A DNA stretch of 10,290 nucleotides, from the IMG/VR virus record IMGVR_UViG_2711768000_000004; one strand, written 5' to 3'. A model generated the notes under the pieces. That model had not been told where the DNA came from. It did not search any database and was given only the letters and a program-made list of their open reading frames with translations. Origin of the DNA: a virus. Its lineage: Duplodnaviria > Heunggongvirae > Uroviricota > Caudoviricetes. Of the stretch, positions 1 to 7,452 are shown piece by piece. Each line of letters begins with the position of its first letter. Positions within the stretch are counted from its first letter, which is position 1. The translations under genes and the position numbers were made by a program.

Positions 1-87
1 AGAGCCTGTCCAATGTGCATAAAAAAATCCGGAAACAAGTGAGCGTTTCCGGATTCTTACACAGCCACTGGATCGGTCAACTGATCC

Positions 88-1335
88 TTAACTGATCGGC
101 ATTACACCACCGGGACGCGGATTCATATCTTCCAGGTCGCGGCAGTCATTGGAAGAGTAAATTCCCCAGTTGATCCCGGTGGCGTAGGCTTCAAAACGGG
201 ACTTCATATCCCCGCGCAGTAACGCCCCGGCGTTAAATTTGGCGTAATAAACGCCCTGCTTACTTTTTCGTACCAGTCCGGTGTTGATCCGCTGTTCGAT
301 GCGGGTCAGATACGGCACCAGTGAATAGTTGATAAATCCCAGCCCCAGCTCTTCGATATTGTTGAAGGTGGCGCGATCGGTGTTCTGCACCATGTGCAAC
401 GGCACCCGGAACAGACGACAGATTTCTTCCAGCTGAAACTTGCGGGTTTCCAGGAACTGACTGTCCTCGGCGTTCAGCGCCATCGACTTCCAGTCCAGCC
501 CCATTTCCAGAATCATCGGGCGGTGAGCATTGCCAAGCCCCGTGTGACACTCCTCAAAATCTTTCTTCAGACGCTCGTAAGCATCCGGCGTGAGCTTTTG
601 TTCCGTACGCAACACACCGGATGTCACCGCACCATTACTAAACAACCTGGCACCGTGCTCCTCGGTTGCCGCTGCCAGTGAAATGGCCTCACGCGCATAC
701 GCAATGGGATTCAGCCCGACAAGTCCATCCAGCGTCAGGGTGCGCACATGCCAGATTTCATTCTGGGTCAACACATCCACGGAACCATCCGGAAACGTCA
801 CCTGATAAACCGGCTGCCACTGGCTGTTCAGCTTCGGTTCCACACAGCCCGGATCTATCGGAAGAAGCTCCACCACTTCTCCCAGTGCCTTTACCTTGTA
901 GGCGTAAAAATTCCCCCGTAGACACAGGCAGACAATAACCAGCTCCCAGAATTCCTGCGGTGTCATGTAGCCATTAGGTTTTGCCGAAACCAACTTATGC
1001 AGTCGTTCATCCACCGCCCGTGTTTTCAGGGTACCGCTGATTTTGTAGAGACTGCAGGGCAGCATACCAACAGACTCTGCCAGCACCCTGACGCAAGAAT
1101 AGACCGCCGTCAGGCGCATGGCCCGCTGGCTACTGATCCGCTTTCCGGTATAGGTGTCGTATGACAGCCCGATAGCATCAGCAGTTCTGCTGGCGTGGTC
1201 ACCGGCACATCGCTTTTTCGTTGAAATAATCCCGAAAAGAACACTATTTACCTCCGCCGACAGACTGCCGTGTACGGTCGAGATATCGCGCCACCAGCCA
1301 CGACCAGAACAGGCACAGCGCCCCGGCAACAACAA
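88..1335 (-). CDS. Phage portal protein (HK97-like family); stop at 88 is firm, start is unresolved (1335 is the maximal ORF, a TTG)
   Basis: 415-codon ORF directly downstream of the terminase large subunit. Translation has a portal-like N-terminal motif ([27 protein letters not shown]). The first in-frame ATG is at 1119; no ATG or GTG lies in frame between the upstream small ORF stop (1244-1246) and 1119. Confidence 0.75.
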
Positions 1336-1426
1336 AACCCGCCGGGGGATAAATCAGCCAGGCACCATACGCCAGCAAAAGCGCACCCAGCACGCCCACC
1401 AGAGGCGCGAGAATCAGCATGATCAT
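1244..1426 (-). CDS. Small hydrophobic (two predicted TM segments) protein of unknown function
   Basis: ATG at 1426-1424 preceded by GAGG about 7 nt upstream, immediately after the terL stop TAA (1440-1438). The 60-aa product [48 protein letters not shown] is strongly hydrophobic with CTG-rich E. coli-like codons. Confidence 0.5.
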
Positions 1427-1437
1427 AATTACCTCAG

Positions 1438-3171
1438 TTAAAGCGAGCGGATCCCGTAGGACTCAATGTGGTCAGACAGCGTGTCTTCTTTCTCGTACAG
1501 CATGGCTCTGCCAACCGCCATAATCAGCGCAACTGCACCATCGATTTTGTTTTCCGCCTGCTCTTTGACGGGTTTCACCACATCATCGTTACCCGGCATG
1601 TTTTTGCCGACCACGTTGCCGATACACCAGGTCATGATGGGATTGCCGTCATGATGAAAACGTCCCGATTCAATCGCTGCTTCCAGCTCTTTCATCGGAT
1701 CGGACATATTGGTGAAGTTCTGGACGATAGTGACGGGATTCAGGTCTTCATCAGCAAGGTCATGTGACAACCCGGTCGCCCCGAAGGGGTCGATGGGTGA
1801 CTCACTGACCGGGCTGATTTTGTTCGCCGCTTTGGCCTCCTCGAGGATGTAGCGATAATCCACCTCCGCACCATCGGTAACGGTCAGAACGCCCATTTCC
1901 ACCCATTTCTGAAAGCGTTCGGCTGTCCGTCGATCTTCATTTTTCTCGACGCTGTACACCGTGTCATACGGTACCCAGAAACGCGGGGCCACACTGTAGT
2001 AATGCGTTTTACCGTCAATCTCGCGGGTATAAAGTCGCGCCATGCTGTTCATATCCAGCTTACGCGCCAGGTCAAAGGCCAGAATGCACGGCTGCCCCTC
2101 GAACTGCTCAAGGGTCAGTGATTTATCCTCGCAGCTCTGCCAGCTCACCAAGTTGAAATACGCCGAACGCGCCGACACCCAGATATTGAGGTGTTTTGTT
2201 TTAAAGACGTTTGCCAGACGGGCGTTATTTTTCGCACGCTGCTGCTGACTTAACAAAAATTCGCGATAAACCGACACGCCAATATTTGGATTGGCTTTTT
2301 CCAGCACCTGCGGGCCGGTCCAGTCGTCACCTTCATCAACGGTATAGATGATCCCGAACAGTTCATCGTTAGGCACCGAGCCGTTGAGCATCTCGATGAC
2401 TTCCCGCCGCTTGTCGTAGCACGGCCCCTCAATGTTGTACCCGGCGGTGGTGATGGCCCACATCAGTGGCTGACGTCGCGCCCCCATCCCGGTAAGCATT
2501 GTGGTATAAAGCGCATCGGTGGCATGCTCGTGATATTCATCAACCACGGCACAGTGGGGTGATGAACCATCACCTGGGTTGCCGATCAGCGGTTCAAACC
2601 GCGCGCCATCCTCCGGACGGTTCATGTTTGAGGCGTTAACCTCAATCCCGAACGCTTCCGTCAGCATGGGTGTGCGTTTACACATCAGTCGCGCCGGGCG
2701 AAAGACTTCCCACGCCTGTTTCTCTGTCGTGGCACCGGAATACACTTCCGCGCCAAACTCGTTATCACAGGCAAAACAATACAGGGCAACACCGGCAGAG
2801 ATTGCTGATTTGCCGTTCTTACGGGGGATTTCGGTGTACACCTCCCGGAAGCGGCGCAACCGGGTGCCTTTATTGACCCAGCCAAACGCACAGCAGATCA
2901 CAAATAGCTGCCACGGCTCCAGCGTGATGGGCATCCGTTTGAATGCCCACTCCCCCTTGGTGTGCGGCAACAGCTGAATAAATTTCGCGGCCCGTTCAGC
3001 CAGGTCCTTGTCGAAGCGGTAACGAAACGACTTACTTTTTTCCGCCATCAGGTCATCAAGATGGCGCTGGCAGGCCTGAATCACAAACTGGCAGGCAACA
3101 ATCTTTCCGCGCACGACATCCCGGGCATACTGATTTGCAGCATTTACGTTGGGGTAAGATTTCCGGCTCAT
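1438..3171 (-). CDS. Terminase large subunit (TerL)
   Basis: 577-aa ORF with Walker A-like PRKNGKS, an acidic VVDEYH motif and a C-terminal nuclease-like region. Its ATG (3171-3169) overlaps the upstream terS stop TGA in an ATGA arrangement. Confidence 0.95.
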
Positions 3172-3662
3172 GATTCGATAATTTTCAGAAACGGGTTAGT
3201 GGCTTTCTTCTGCCCCGCCAGGCCAATCAGACGCTGGCGGCTGCTGGGGTCGAGTCCGAGCATTGCCCCCGTGCTGCTCATCTCGGACTCCTGTTCTTTT
3301 TTGGCGGTCAGCTCCGGATTTTTGACCCTGCCGCCCATTGCACCGGTGATGGTGTTGCCCTGTATGGCAATATTTTTCACGGCACGTCGCCAGAACTCAT
3401 AGGCCACGCACCACCGCTCAAGTACCGCCAGGTCAGTCACGCACAGCAGGCCCTGACCGCAGAGTTCTTTGGTTGTCAGTTGCCACATGATCGTGGCGAG
3501 AGGGAGATCTTCTTCAGCGAACCACTCTGGTGGCTCAACACCTTTGATGGGCGTAAAAACAGGTTCATCTTTGTTCAGGGCTCGCTTGCCGGGGTTTCCG
3601 GCCAGCGCCTTGCGCGCCGTTGGCTTGGGGCGACGCCCGGAACGCCCCGCCGTTCCAGCCAT
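3168..3662 (-). CDS. Terminase small subunit (P27 family-like)
   Basis: ATG at 3662-3660 with AGGAG about 9 nt upstream. N-terminus [27 protein letters not shown] is typical of P27-type small terminase subunits. Sits between an HNH gene and terL, as in HK97-like packaging modules. Confidence 0.85.
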
Positions 3663-3671
3663 ATGCGGCAC

Positions 3672-3783
3672 TCCTGGTTAAATTTCATTTTTCGCGGGTA
3701 TAAAAAAACGATGGGGCGGGCAGTCCGGAAGACGTCAGGTCACAGGGATTTGCCCCGCCCCTCCCTACAAGTGAGAATAATTA
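3672..3783. other. Candidate cos / packaging-initiation region
   Basis: Intergenic region between the HNH gene and terS. GC-rich imperfect dyad GGGGCGGGCA (3713-3722) and TGCCCCGCCC (3751-3760) pairs at 8 of 10 positions and flanks a GACGTC-containing core. HK97-like phages place cos between HNH and terS. Confidence 0.3.
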
Positions 3784-4134
3784 TCACCGGATTCGTTCGC
3801 GCGCTGTTTTCGCTTTATGGCAGGGCCAGCACAGACTCTGCAGGTTGCTGTCTGCGTCTGTTCCGCCATGCGCTTTCGGGATGATGTGGTCGACGGTTTT
3901 CGCCTCGCTCACCACACCGACACGCAGACACAACTGACACAGACCTTTATCGCGCTTCAGAATACGGGCACGAATCACCGTCCATTTTGAGCCATAGCCA
4001 CGCTGGTGGCGGCTCAGTCCGCGCTGGTGCTGCACCCAGCCTTCACCGCGATGTTTATCGCAGTAACCCGAACTGTCTGTGGTTGTACCTGCACATCCAC
4101 GCTTACGGCAGGCACGTGGGATTAGTGATGGCAT
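3784..4134 (-). CDS. HNH homing endonuclease (packaging-associated)
   Basis: 116-aa ORF with Cys-rich CxxC pairs and an HNH core (DHIIPKAHGGTDADSNLQSLCWPCHKAKT). ATG at 4134-4132 with GAGGT upstream. Immediately precedes terS. Confidence 0.9.
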   Translation of the reverse strand: MPSLIPRACRKRGCAGTTTDSSGYCDKHRGEGWVQHQRGLSRHQRGYGSKWTVIRARILKRDKGLCQLCLRVGVVSEAKTVDHIIPKAHGGTDADSNLQSLCWPCHKAKTARERIR

Positions 4135-4176
4135 AAATACCTCATACCCTGCGAAATGTTTACCACGATAAAAAGG

Positions 4177-4641
4177 CTACTTAATGCACTGAGTGCGGAT
4201 ATACTCCTGTGCCCCTTCCAGTTGCATCTGCATCGTCATCAGCCGCTCTCTGAGGGTGAAATAATCCCGTTCAGCGGTGTCTGCCAGTCGGGGGCTGGTT
4301 GCATTATCCACGCCGGAGGCGGTGGTGGCTTCACGCACTGACTGACAGACTGCTTTGATGTGCAACCGACGACGACCAGCGGCAACATCAGCGCGCAGAG
4401 TTTCATTTTCAGCTTTCGCATCAGCTAACTCCTTCGTGTATTTAGCATCGAGTGCATTAACATCACGCTGTCTCTGCTGCATGTCAGTAATGGTTGCGTT
4501 CGCCAGCTTCAGTTCTCTTGCGTTTTTGTCGCGCTGCTCTTTGTAGGTAATGGCGTTATCACGGTAATGATTAACAGCCCATGACAGGCAGACGATGATG
4601 CAGATAACCAGAGCGGAGATAATCGCGGTGACTCTGCTCAT
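4177..4641 (-). CDS. Rz: Spanin inner-membrane subunit (i-spanin, Rz)
   Basis: Translation from [21 protein letters not shown] has an N-terminal TM segment then a coiled-coil periplasmic domain. It closely matches my recollection of DLP12 RzpD / phage 21 Rz. The ATG (4641-4639) overlaps the endolysin stop (ATGA). Confidence 0.85.
4239..4421 (-). CDS. Rz1: Spanin outer-membrane lipoprotein subunit (o-spanin, Rz1), embedded in Rz in an alternate frame
   Basis: [20 protein letters not shown] has a signal peptide and lipobox (VVGC) followed by a proline-rich PPPPPAW segment. The gene lies wholly inside Rz, the classic Rz/Rz1 arrangement. Confidence 0.8.
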
Positions 4642-5135
4642 TGCTGCCCCCACAAACAGACTTCACGCTCAATCTCACGACGGGTCATCAGCCCTTTCCA
4701 TTGCTTACCGCCAGCATATGTCCAGCGACGTAGCTGGTCACATGCGCCTTTGATATCGCCCTGGTTTATTTTGCGAAGAAGCGTCGATGTTCTGAAATTG
4801 CCAGCGCCCACGTTGTAAACGAACGAGTAAAGAGCGCCGCGCGTTGTTTCCGGTATATCGACTTTGATGTACGGGTTAATTTGTCTGGCGACAGTGGCAA
4901 GGTCTTTATTCAGGAGGGCTTTGCATTCTGCTTCGGTATACGTTTTACCGAGCATGATGTCTTTTCCGGTGTGTCCGTGACATACAGTCCATACACCAAT
5001 GATATCTTTGTATGGTATGTAGCTGACACCTTCCAGACCATCGTTACCACCTGGGCCAGTGATTAACACAGATGCTATAGCAACAGCCCCACCACCAATA
5101 GCAGCTGCAACAGCCTTGCGTAATGATGGCGACAT
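4638..5135 (-). CDS. SAR endolysin (lysozyme, phage 21 R / DLP12 RrrD-like)
   Basis: 165 aa. N-terminal signal-anchor-release segment [20 protein letters not shown], then a lysozyme core with E-D-T catalytic residues ([11 protein letters not shown]...[10 protein letters not shown]). Near-identical to my recollection of RrrD / R21. ATG at 5135-5133 with GAGGTG upstream. Confidence 0.9.
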
Positions 5136-5157
5136 TATTCACCTCTCGCAGCCTTAC
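5135..5157 (-). pseudogene. 3'-terminal remnant (last 7 codons plus stop) of a pinholin gene (S21/EssD-like), truncated by IS2
   Basis: Minus strand reads (C)GT AAG GCT GCG AGA GGT GAA TAA, i.e. K-A-A-R-G-E-stop. This matches the C-terminus ...REDRRKAARGE of S21/EssD as I recall it, with the usual TAATG overlap onto the endolysin start. The rest of the gene is replaced by IS2 starting at 5158. Confidence 0.55.
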
Positions 5158-5677
5158 TAGACTGGCCCCCTGAATCTCCAGACAACCAGTATCACTTAAA
5201 TAAGTGATAGTCTTAATACTAGTTTTTAGACTAGTCATTGGAGTACAGATGATTGATGTCTTAGGGCCGGAGAAACGCAGACGGCGTACCACACAGGAAA
5301 AGATCGCAATTGTTCAGCAGAGCTTTGAACCGGGGATGACGGTCTCCCTCGTTGCCCGGCAACATGGTGTATACGGAGAAGCACATCCGTATCATCAGTG
5401 TGACGACTGCGGCGGCCATCCATCCAGTCATCGGTTCGTCTGAGAATGACGTGCAACTGCGCACGCGACACCCGGAGACAACGGCTGACTAAGCTTACTC
5501 CCCATCCCCGGGCAATAAGGGCGCGTGCGCTATCCACTTTTTTGCCCGTCCATATTCAACGGCTTCTTTGAGGAGTTCATTTTCCATCGTTTTCTTGCCG
5601 AGCAGGCGCTGGAGTTCTTTAATCTGCTTCATGGCGGCAGCAAGTTCAGAGGCAGGAACAACCTGTTCTCCGGCGGC
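5158..5677 (+). mobile_element. IS2 (IS3 family) fragment with aberrant structure
   Basis: 5158 onward matches the IS2 left inverted repeat (TAGACTGGCCCCCTGAATCTCCAGACAACCA...) and the orfA start (ATG 5249, [41 protein letters not shown]). After about 5371 the sequence becomes the reverse complement of internal IS2: the minus strand encodes the InsC C-terminus and InsD N-terminus ([59 protein letters not shown]). The fragment ends at the N run. Confidence 0.8.
5249..5371 (+). pseudogene. IS2 orfA (InsC) N-terminal fragment, 41 codons, then sequence diverges
   Basis: In-frame match to the IS2 InsC N-terminus. Reading frame leaves IS2 orfA after ...ARQHGV at the junction near 5361-5371. Confidence 0.7.
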
Positions 5678-5712
5678 NNNNNNNNNNNNNNNNNNNNNNN
5701 NNNNNNNNNNNN
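5678..5712. other. Unresolved sequence (35 N)
   Basis: Run of n characters; assembly gap or masking. Confidence 1.
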
Positions 5713-5774
5713 CGATTTTGATATCGGGCCATTAAAAAAGATCGCGTAGCATTCTTAATTCATGAGGAACTTTA

Positions 5775-5839
5775 CCCGCCAGCAATCTGAGTAGCGAAAG
5801 CTGTTCATCCCCAATGTTTTTGCTGGCGGGTCCTTTTTT
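5775..5839 (+). terminator. Plus-strand terminator-like stem-loop with T tract
   Basis: ACCCGCCAGCAA (5775-5786) pairs with TTGCTGGCGGGT (5820-5831) around a 33-nt loop, followed by CCTTTTTT. Orientation is opposite to the phage genes. A plus-strand reading frame ends ...DFDIGPLKKIA-stop at 5749 just upstream. Confidence 0.35.
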
Positions 5840-6278
5840 CTACGGTCCTCCTCCCCGGAGGGGGGCATTTCATTATTTTTCTAATCGTTACTGGTGAGAA
5901 GGCGGAAGAAAAAGCCAGTTCTTCGCCCCTAAATAACAGCATGATTCCAGTCCATGCAAAATCTGATTTCCAGCTCACACATACCGAGCACTGTACAAAA
6001 AACCGCCAGCCAAGGCAGTTAAGAGTGTGTTCCCGGGGTTTGCTTAGAATATTTTGTAAGTTGTCCGAAGAGATATTTACAACACCAGAATGATGAATCA
6101 TCAGTCCCCTGCCAGAGGTTCACTACGTAACCTGACCGACAATGCACCATTCTGGTGCTGAAAAAAGAGCACTGGAACTGCAACAAAACAACATCACAGA
6201 ACAGGAGATGGTAAGGAGTCAGACATTCCCACACAATATTGTGTCAGTGCAAATAACAACCTTCGTCTCAAATCTCGC

Positions 6279-6703: not shown

Positions 6704-6773
6704 AAGCTGTGTGGCGTAGTAACCACTCTTAACAGGATATTCAACTTTTTACGATCGTAAAGTTTTCGGAAAA

Positions 6774-6934
6774 NNNNNNNNNNNNNNNNNNNNNNNNNNN
6801 NNNNNNNNNNNNNNNNNNNNNNNNNNNNNNNNNNNNNNNNNNNNNNNNNNNNNNNNNNNNNNNNNNNNNNNNNNNNNNNNNNNNNNNNNNNNNNNNNNNN
6901 NNNNNNNNNNNNNNNNNNNNNNNNNNNNNNNNNN
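6774..6934. other. Unresolved sequence (161 N)
   Basis: Run of n characters inside or just downstream of the ORF6N-domain gene. Confidence 1.
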
Positions 6935-7252
6935 CCACGCCTGATCGGTTTCGAGCATTTTGGCGTGACGGGCTGCGCCACGTTCTGTCCAGAGGATGAG
7001 GGAGCGAACGTTACGGGCAATTTTCACAGAAACTCTTAAAGAGTTTTCGTTCTTCAACTCTCGTAACGCATCACCTTCTATCAGGAAAAAATGTTTACCT
7101 TCTATAAACCGTTCTTTGTTTCGATTGAAATTGTTTGTCAAACGCTGGCGCTCTGTTCCGTACAAATCAGCCAGCAGCTCTGTTGTCATGACAGGAAGAT
7201 GGTTATGCGTAAGTGACGGGAGTTTTTCAATAGACGTGCGATTCATAGACAT
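6935..7252 (-). CDS. ORF6N-domain protein (KilA-N/ORF6N-type phage DNA-binding, antirepressor-like), 3' end lost in N gap
   Basis: ATG at 7252-7250 with AAAGGA upstream. The 105 aa before the gap (MSMNRTSIEKLPSLTHNHLPVMTTELLADLYGTERQRLTNNFNRNKERFIEGKHFFLIEGDALRELK...RSLILWTERGAARHAKML) resemble the ORF6N domain pattern as I recall it. Confidence 0.55.
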
Positions 7253-7389
7253 GTCCTTTCGAATATTTTGATTTACCCCTTTTGAGAGGGTGACCGGGCG
7301 CTCAAAACCGTCGAAAGTCGGCGGGCGTATTTCCATTGCTGGTATTGTATTAGCCGCACACCCGGTCATAAACCAAGAATTCTGGACAC

Positions 7390-7417
7390 AAAAAAACCAC
7401 ATGGCTATCGGGTGTGG
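7390..7417 (-). terminator. Terminator/attenuator-like hairpin in the leader of the ORF6N gene
   Basis: Minus strand CCACA-cccgatagcca-TGTGG followed by TTTTTTT (7396-7390). Lies about 30 nt downstream of the second promoter. Confidence 0.45.
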
Positions 7418-7452
7418 ATACCGCTTTCGAGGTGTTTTGAGCACCGCGGGGA

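Follow-up and report, generated by a model that had tools for sequence, protein, structure and literature searches.

The locus raises a simple question, namely where its portal gene begins. In the window (the whole stretch of viral DNA that was analysed, 10,290 nt), the portal-frame ORF occupies 88..1335 on the minus strand, on which all signals discussed at this locus lie, and according to the ORF list and its translation it starts at a TTG and encodes 415 aa. A Pfam search matched it to PF04860 (Phage_portal) with E=3.3e-107 over profile positions 2–321 of 321. The ORF runs into a small ymfR-like ORF (1244..1426, ATG start, 60 aa), with an overlap of 92 nt (1244–1335); the initial annotation had likewise seen the frame open back to TTG 1335 and had put the overlap at about 90 nt. 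When the portal frame was read codon by codon from 1243 to 1120, ATG, GTG and TTG were all absent, the only non-AUG candidates being ATT and ATC codons, and the first Met codon is ATG 1119–1117, which agrees with the earlier statement that no in-frame ATG or GTG follows the small ORF until that Met. A GTG at 1244–1242, with GGAGG (1255–1251) placed 6 nt upstream, opens an ORF of 44 codons in a different frame that is closed by TGA 1112–1110, again as previously described. Four explanations had been offered for this arrangement, namely initiation at a non-canonical codon, a mutation that shifts the frame, a sequencing error and a real gene overlap.

We conclude that the portal gene is almost certainly a pseudogene that has been inactivated twice, and that it belongs to a degraded phiP27/SfII/ST64B-like prophage of Shigella sonnei; none of the results speaks against this. 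The features on which this reading is built are collected in Table 1.

Table 1. Features of the portal locus in the window
Feature	Position	Strand	Basis
ymfR-like gene for a small hydrophobic (membrane) protein, intact	1244..1426	-	ORF; same length and position in relatives
Shine-Dalgarno sequence GGAGG of the portal gene	1251..1255	-	columns invariant against SfII, phiP27 and ST64B
Portal codons 1–21, GTG frame, with the true start GTG 1244–1242	1182..1244	-	phiP27 match and starts of relatives
1-nt deletion site	1181..1183	-	single gap column against all relatives; undeleted in L017
Premature TGA, closing the 44-codon ORF that opens at the true start	1110..1112	-	ORF list
Portal codons 22–380, in the -1 frame relative to the start	105..1182	-	match to phiP27 residues 22–380; holds the whole Phage_portal domain
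Spurious upstream extension inside ymfR, with TTG 1335, 1332 and 1329	1245..1335	-	open by chance; not portal-coding; without similarity to portal N-termini
First in-frame ATG of the shifted frame	1117..1119	-	used by gene callers (343 aa); without a Shine-Dalgarno sequence
IS4 end, replacing portal codons 381–413	1..104	-	InsG matches; portal homology ends at 105

The first 1.7 kb of the window is 89–91% identical to phages SfIV, SfII, SfI, ST64B and phiP27. As intact relatives we compared phages SfII (portal record AGQ45495.1), phiP27 (NP_543090.1) and ST64B (Sb4), together with three PGAP-annotated E. coli prophages (e.g. WP_240745495.1). In SfII and phiP27, terL is followed by a 183-nt 'membrane protein' gene and a portal gene of 1242 nt, which begins on the last base of the small gene's stop codon; the three E. 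coli prophages carry a 183-nt gene labelled 'protein YmfR' or hypothetical, a 1242-nt 'phage portal protein' gene and an 'HK97 family phage prohead protease' gene. The same one-base overlap is present in the window, where the TAG stop of the ymfR-like gene (1246–1244) shares a base with the GTG (TAGTG). The 60-aa ymfR-like product matched no family in a Pfam search, and its counterparts in the relatives are annotated as 'membrane protein' or 'protein YmfR'. The annotated portal starts of SfII, phiP27 and all three E. coli prophages are equivalent to GTG 1244 of the window. The intact portal protein is 413 aa long, with the prohead protease gene next to it, and the N-termini of the relatives consist of 22 common residues, then D or E, then a further 12 common residues. 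The ST64B RefSeq entry (NC_004313.1, locus L003, 2054–3298) places the portal CDS 3 nt upstream of the conserved GTG; judging by the shared sequence AAATAGTG, its start codon would be ATA, which looks like a slip in start-codon annotation.

Against this background, the coding similarity of the window switches frame within the gene. In protein comparisons the GTG frame matches residues 1–21 of the phiP27 portal (20/21 identical, E=1e-12) and the long frame matches it from residue 22 through residue 380, exactly the switch that had been anticipated when a frame-by-frame comparison with portal proteins was first proposed. At the DNA level, window positions 1440–1050 align with SfII, phiP27 and ST64B at 96% identity, with GGAGGTAAATAGTG invariant, and there is a sole gap column in the window, the relatives having GAGCTGGCGGATGC where the window has GAACT-GCTGATGC. 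Global alignment with each of the six intact portal genes puts the 1-nt gap at 1182, offset 62 counted from the GTG, and in the alignments with phiP27 and E. coli A36 no other indel occurs over the 1140 nt before the IS4 junction. The lesion is the loss of one G (either of the two) from an ancestral GG doublet 63 nt into the gene (CTGGCT to CTGCT). The ancestral state was observed directly, since exactly the undeleted sequence that had been predicted, GAACTGGCTGATGC, is present in one IMG/VR contig (L017), whose reading frame stays open from the GTG as far as its DNA extends. Re-insertion of one G after CTG (1184–1182) restores GAA CTG GCT GAT GCT (ELADA) and yields a continuous portal of 380 residues, 97.4% identical to phiP27 and 97.6% identical to A36. 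The deletion thus leaves codons 1–21 in the GTG frame, which runs to the stop at TGA 1112–1110, and codons 22–380 in the long frame. Of the explanations offered initially, the frameshift mutation is the correct one, given the frame switch at codon 21/22 and the 1-nt gap next to 1182. The initial annotation had named one observation that would refute its reading of the locus, homologous portal proteins that align without a break in a single frame, beginning at a canonical start codon; such continuity is found in the homologues and is broken in this window. We therefore have both a frame-disrupting change relative to six intact orthologues and an identifiable ancestral allele (L017), as expected of a pseudogene.

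The same comparison bears on the apparent overlap. A genuinely overlapping gene, in which the portal starts at TTG 1335 or 1332 within ymfR, would agree with the openness of the frame as far as TTG 1335, and the CP000038.1 locus (L010) does carry a 414-aa gene model that begins at TTG 1332. However, the long frame encodes 51 residues ahead of the deletion site, 30 of which lie upstream of the GTG, and these show no similarity to portal N-termini; the conserved N-terminus is matched by the other frame, and the relatives, which start at GTG, have no such extension. Nor is the open frame backed by a conserved start signal. A real overlap of 92 nt is consequently unsupported, and we consider a TTG start vanishingly improbable. 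The idea of a non-canonical start in the long frame fares no better, as the residues before the shift are unlike portals and the relatives all start at GTG; among codons 1243–1120 only ATT and ATC could have served, and the homology switch makes such a start unnecessary.

The deletion was observed in many independent records. An exact-protein look-up with the large terminase of the window, a protein indexed in 4305 blocks of the assembly collection, returned ten loci (L004–L013). Some of them are complete chromosomes, for instance CP000038.1 of S. sonnei Ss046 (PMC5447701; genome by Yang et al. 2005, as cited there). All ten share an identical core of 66 nt around the deletion, nine of them are also identical over a 341-nt stretch from the region upstream of ymfR to portal codon 47, and several match window positions 1–5157 at 100% identity. 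When IMG/VR was scanned with a pattern that permitted zero or one extra base at the site, seven contigs were retrieved; six (L018–L023) have the deleted form together with the 44-codon ORF, and the seventh is L017. In 5,426 complete E. coli genomes searched with window positions 1100–1260, no record was found at 99% identity, and in the 15 E. coli matches listed the record span exceeds the query span by one base (162 against 161 nt in 14 of them, 159 against 158 nt in H79), so that the deletion was not seen outside S. sonnei-type loci. In locus L009 (CP021144.1), a further 1-nt loss is present in a C5 run of the ymfR-like gene (CCCCC to CCCC, equivalent to window 1349–1345) and the 60-aa gene is not called there; this may be another step of decay or a homopolymer sequencing error.

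The alternative that the gene is intact in the organism and that one base was simply dropped from the record is extremely unlikely in view of this distribution. The record does have two runs of N (5678–5712 and 6774–6934) and rearranged IS2 fragments, which suggest draft or masked sequence, and the lost base does lie in a short run of G. A GG doublet, however, is not an error-prone homopolymer, and the same deletion recurs in the 66-nt core of CP000038.1 and the other assembly loci, in the 341-nt identity and in the six IMG/VR contigs, which excludes the sequencing error suggested by the initial annotation and makes this a fixed mutation. The deletion is a real mutation, common to every S. sonnei-type locus that we examined.

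Elsewhere in the window, Pfam assigned the neighbouring ORFs to a small terminase, a large terminase (with ATPase and nuclease domains), an HNH endonuclease, Rz, a lysozyme and a DnaB-like helicase. The N runs, 35 and 161 bases long, indicate that the record was masked or scaffolded. A 231-aa ORF at 6749..7444 ('ORF6N domain') crosses the second of them, where related loci have 257 real bases, and its length is therefore unreliable. At 5156–5677, fragments of IS2 (IS3-family) take the place of the holin gene and ~130 nt upstream of it, both of which are present in L010 at 1692–2014; one end of IS2, 216 nt long, precedes an internal IS2 piece of 317 nt in the opposite orientation, which directly abuts the N run. 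This arrangement is either a real IS2-associated rearrangement in the strain or an assembly artefact at a repeat. A search for repeats around 4900–6000 that might explain the IS2 fragments found nothing.

The second lesion, which the initial annotation did not mention, is a 3' truncation. Portal homology ends at window position 105, corresponding to codon 380 of 413, and an IS4 terminal repeat (TAATGCCGATCAGTTAAG) follows immediately at 104–87. The last 33 portal codons are thus replaced by IS4, which supplies the last five codons of the long ORF (VMPIS) and its TAA stop (90–88), and window positions 1–109 are 98–100% identical to InsG/IS4 records. A complete copy of the element in L007 measures 1426 bp (L007 7068–8493) and encodes a 442-aa transposase with Nterm_IS4 and DDE_Tnp_1 domains; its 18-bp ends match each other with 2 mismatches (regex search, up to 3 allowed). 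In L004–L006 and L010, the IS4 transposase gene is itself broken by an IS3-family element.

No target-site duplication was found around IS4 in L007: its flanks, ...CCCGGTGGTG and CAGCCCTTGAGC..., are unrelated, and the far one is not portal sequence, the phiP27-like portal 3' end being ATGTGTATCTGACACCGATGAAC.... In both L007 and L008 the far flank is chromosomal, with genes for Ribosomal_S30AE, PheL and CM_2/PDT (chorismate mutase/prephenate dehydratase). When the 3' remainder of the portal gene, the protease gene and the capsid gene were sought with phiP27 DNA over ~2.5 kb beyond IS4 in L004–L010, there was no match. The missing target duplication and the unrelated far flank point to an IS4-associated deletion or rearrangement rather than a simple insertion. 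The morphogenesis module has been deleted or moved by such a rearrangement, in the latter case perhaps by an IS4-mediated inversion to elsewhere in the genome. The genomic context is divided: the upstream half is as expected for an HK97-type portal, with terS, terL and ymfR present, and the downstream half is unlike it, since the places of protease and capsid are taken by IS4 and, beyond it, by chromosomal genes.

Could the two frames nevertheless be joined during translation? Programmed frameshifts are known in phage structural genes, for example in the tail assembly chaperone G/GT of lambda-like phages, and the situation here is alike in having two overlapping frames in a morphogenesis gene with a -1 relation. 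The shift needed from GTG 1244 into the long frame is indeed -1, no stop codon interrupts the -1 frame anywhere in the interval, and an A5 run at 1218–1214 (CGA AAA AGC) would permit re-pairing of the P-site Lys-tRNA in -1. Nevertheless, a slippery-site scan of 1244–1110 found no XXXYYYZ heptamer, the only runs being T4 and A5; slippage at A5 would replace residues 11–21, and the product would still be without the 33 C-terminal residues and would have no capsid to enter. The two-frame layout is also not conserved: all examined relatives encode the portal without a frame change, and hence there has been no selection for a recoding signal. Unlike lambda-like G/GT, the portal gene has no conserved slippery heptamer, the shift is missing from all intact relatives, and its two-frame state is explained by a lineage-specific 1-nt deletion. 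Production of the portal by programmed -1 frameshifting or slippage is accordingly exceedingly unlikely.

A different possibility is that an N-terminally truncated portal fragment of 343 aa is translated from ATG 1119. No canonical start precedes this codon in the long frame, and 343-aa models beginning there have been called in L005–L009 and L013. The sequence upstream of it (GAAAGCGGATCAGTAGCCAGCGGGCC) contains no GGAGG-like or other Shine-Dalgarno-like site, though, and the product would lack 42 conserved residues at its N-terminus as well as the 33 at its C-terminus. The initial annotation had put the N-terminal loss at about 70 residues, a figure that holds when counted from the spurious TTG 1335 and does not when counted from the real GTG 1244, which gives the 42. 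There is also no sign of selection, as the repaired protein carries R233C (window 548–546) and P365S (152–150) at positions that are invariant in the six intact relatives. These substitutions fit relaxed constraint on the coding sequence, two changes being too few for proof. We regard translation of this fragment as very unlikely.

The two start sites just discussed, the TTG-1335 extension and ATG 1119, are by-products of the frameshift. Public gene calls disagree accordingly at this locus: L010 has 414 aa, most others have 343 or 336 aa from ATG 1119, and L004 has none. With the terminase present in 4305 blocks, the locus is very widely sequenced, and the wrong models are probably widespread in protein databases. 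The value of the present result lies mainly in annotation, in that two artefactual models (343 aa, and 414 aa with a false N-terminus) are to be replaced by a single pseudogene, which starts at GTG 1244, is frameshifted at 1182 and is cut by IS4 at 105.

As for the history of this pseudogene, the gene originally began at GTG 1244–1242, served by GGAGG 1255–1251 and overlapping the ymfR-like stop by one base. Loss of one G of the GG next to 1182 left 21 correct codons followed by 23 wrong ones up to TGA 1112–1110, with the remaining 359 homologous codons in the -1 frame and without a start codon of their own. By chance that frame is open back into ymfR as far as a TTG, giving rise to the apparent overlapping start. 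IS4 has also replaced the last 33 codons, with the following head and tail genes gone from this position.

What is left fails as a functional portal gene on three counts, because the frame is interrupted after codon 21, the native C-terminus is lost at codon 380 and the downstream head genes are missing. We infer that no functional portal is made; the loss probably does no harm in a prophage that has become unable to assemble particles. A portal fragment may still arise by leaky translation. It is most unlikely that such a fragment, whether initiated at ATG 1119 or produced by rare -1 slippage within the A5 run, has been domesticated as a dominant-negative defence and kept across S. sonnei, where it would poison portal ring assembly of superinfecting phiP27/SfII-like phages; none of the results presented here supports this scenario.

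By its sequence and upstream gene order this is a portal gene of the phiP27/SfII/ST64B type. It shares with those phages and with the E. coli prophages the order of terS, terL, ymfR-like gene and portal, as well as the GGAGG and TAGTG start context, and its repaired product is 91–98% identical to their portals over 380 residues. It differs from them in the 1-nt deletion after codon 21, in the presence of IS4 in place of codons 381–413, and in lacking the genes for prohead protease and capsid, which in every relative come after the portal. Regions of phiP27-like prophage have already been reported in S. sonnei (PMC5447701), and a literature search for this specific pseudogene yielded only general papers, on S. 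sonnei prophage regions and on insertion-sequence pseudogenisation in Shigella. One of the latter describes numerous insertion sequences in Shigella genomes as a cause of pseudogenisation (PMC8072062). The portal gene fits this known course of genome decay; it is an ordinary case, fully explained, and raises no new biological question. Compared with the Shigella pseudogenes formed by insertion sequences and frameshifts (PMC8072062), the pattern is the same, a prophage gene with a point frameshift and an insertion sequence, and the portal gene does not differ from them in kind but is one specific instance.
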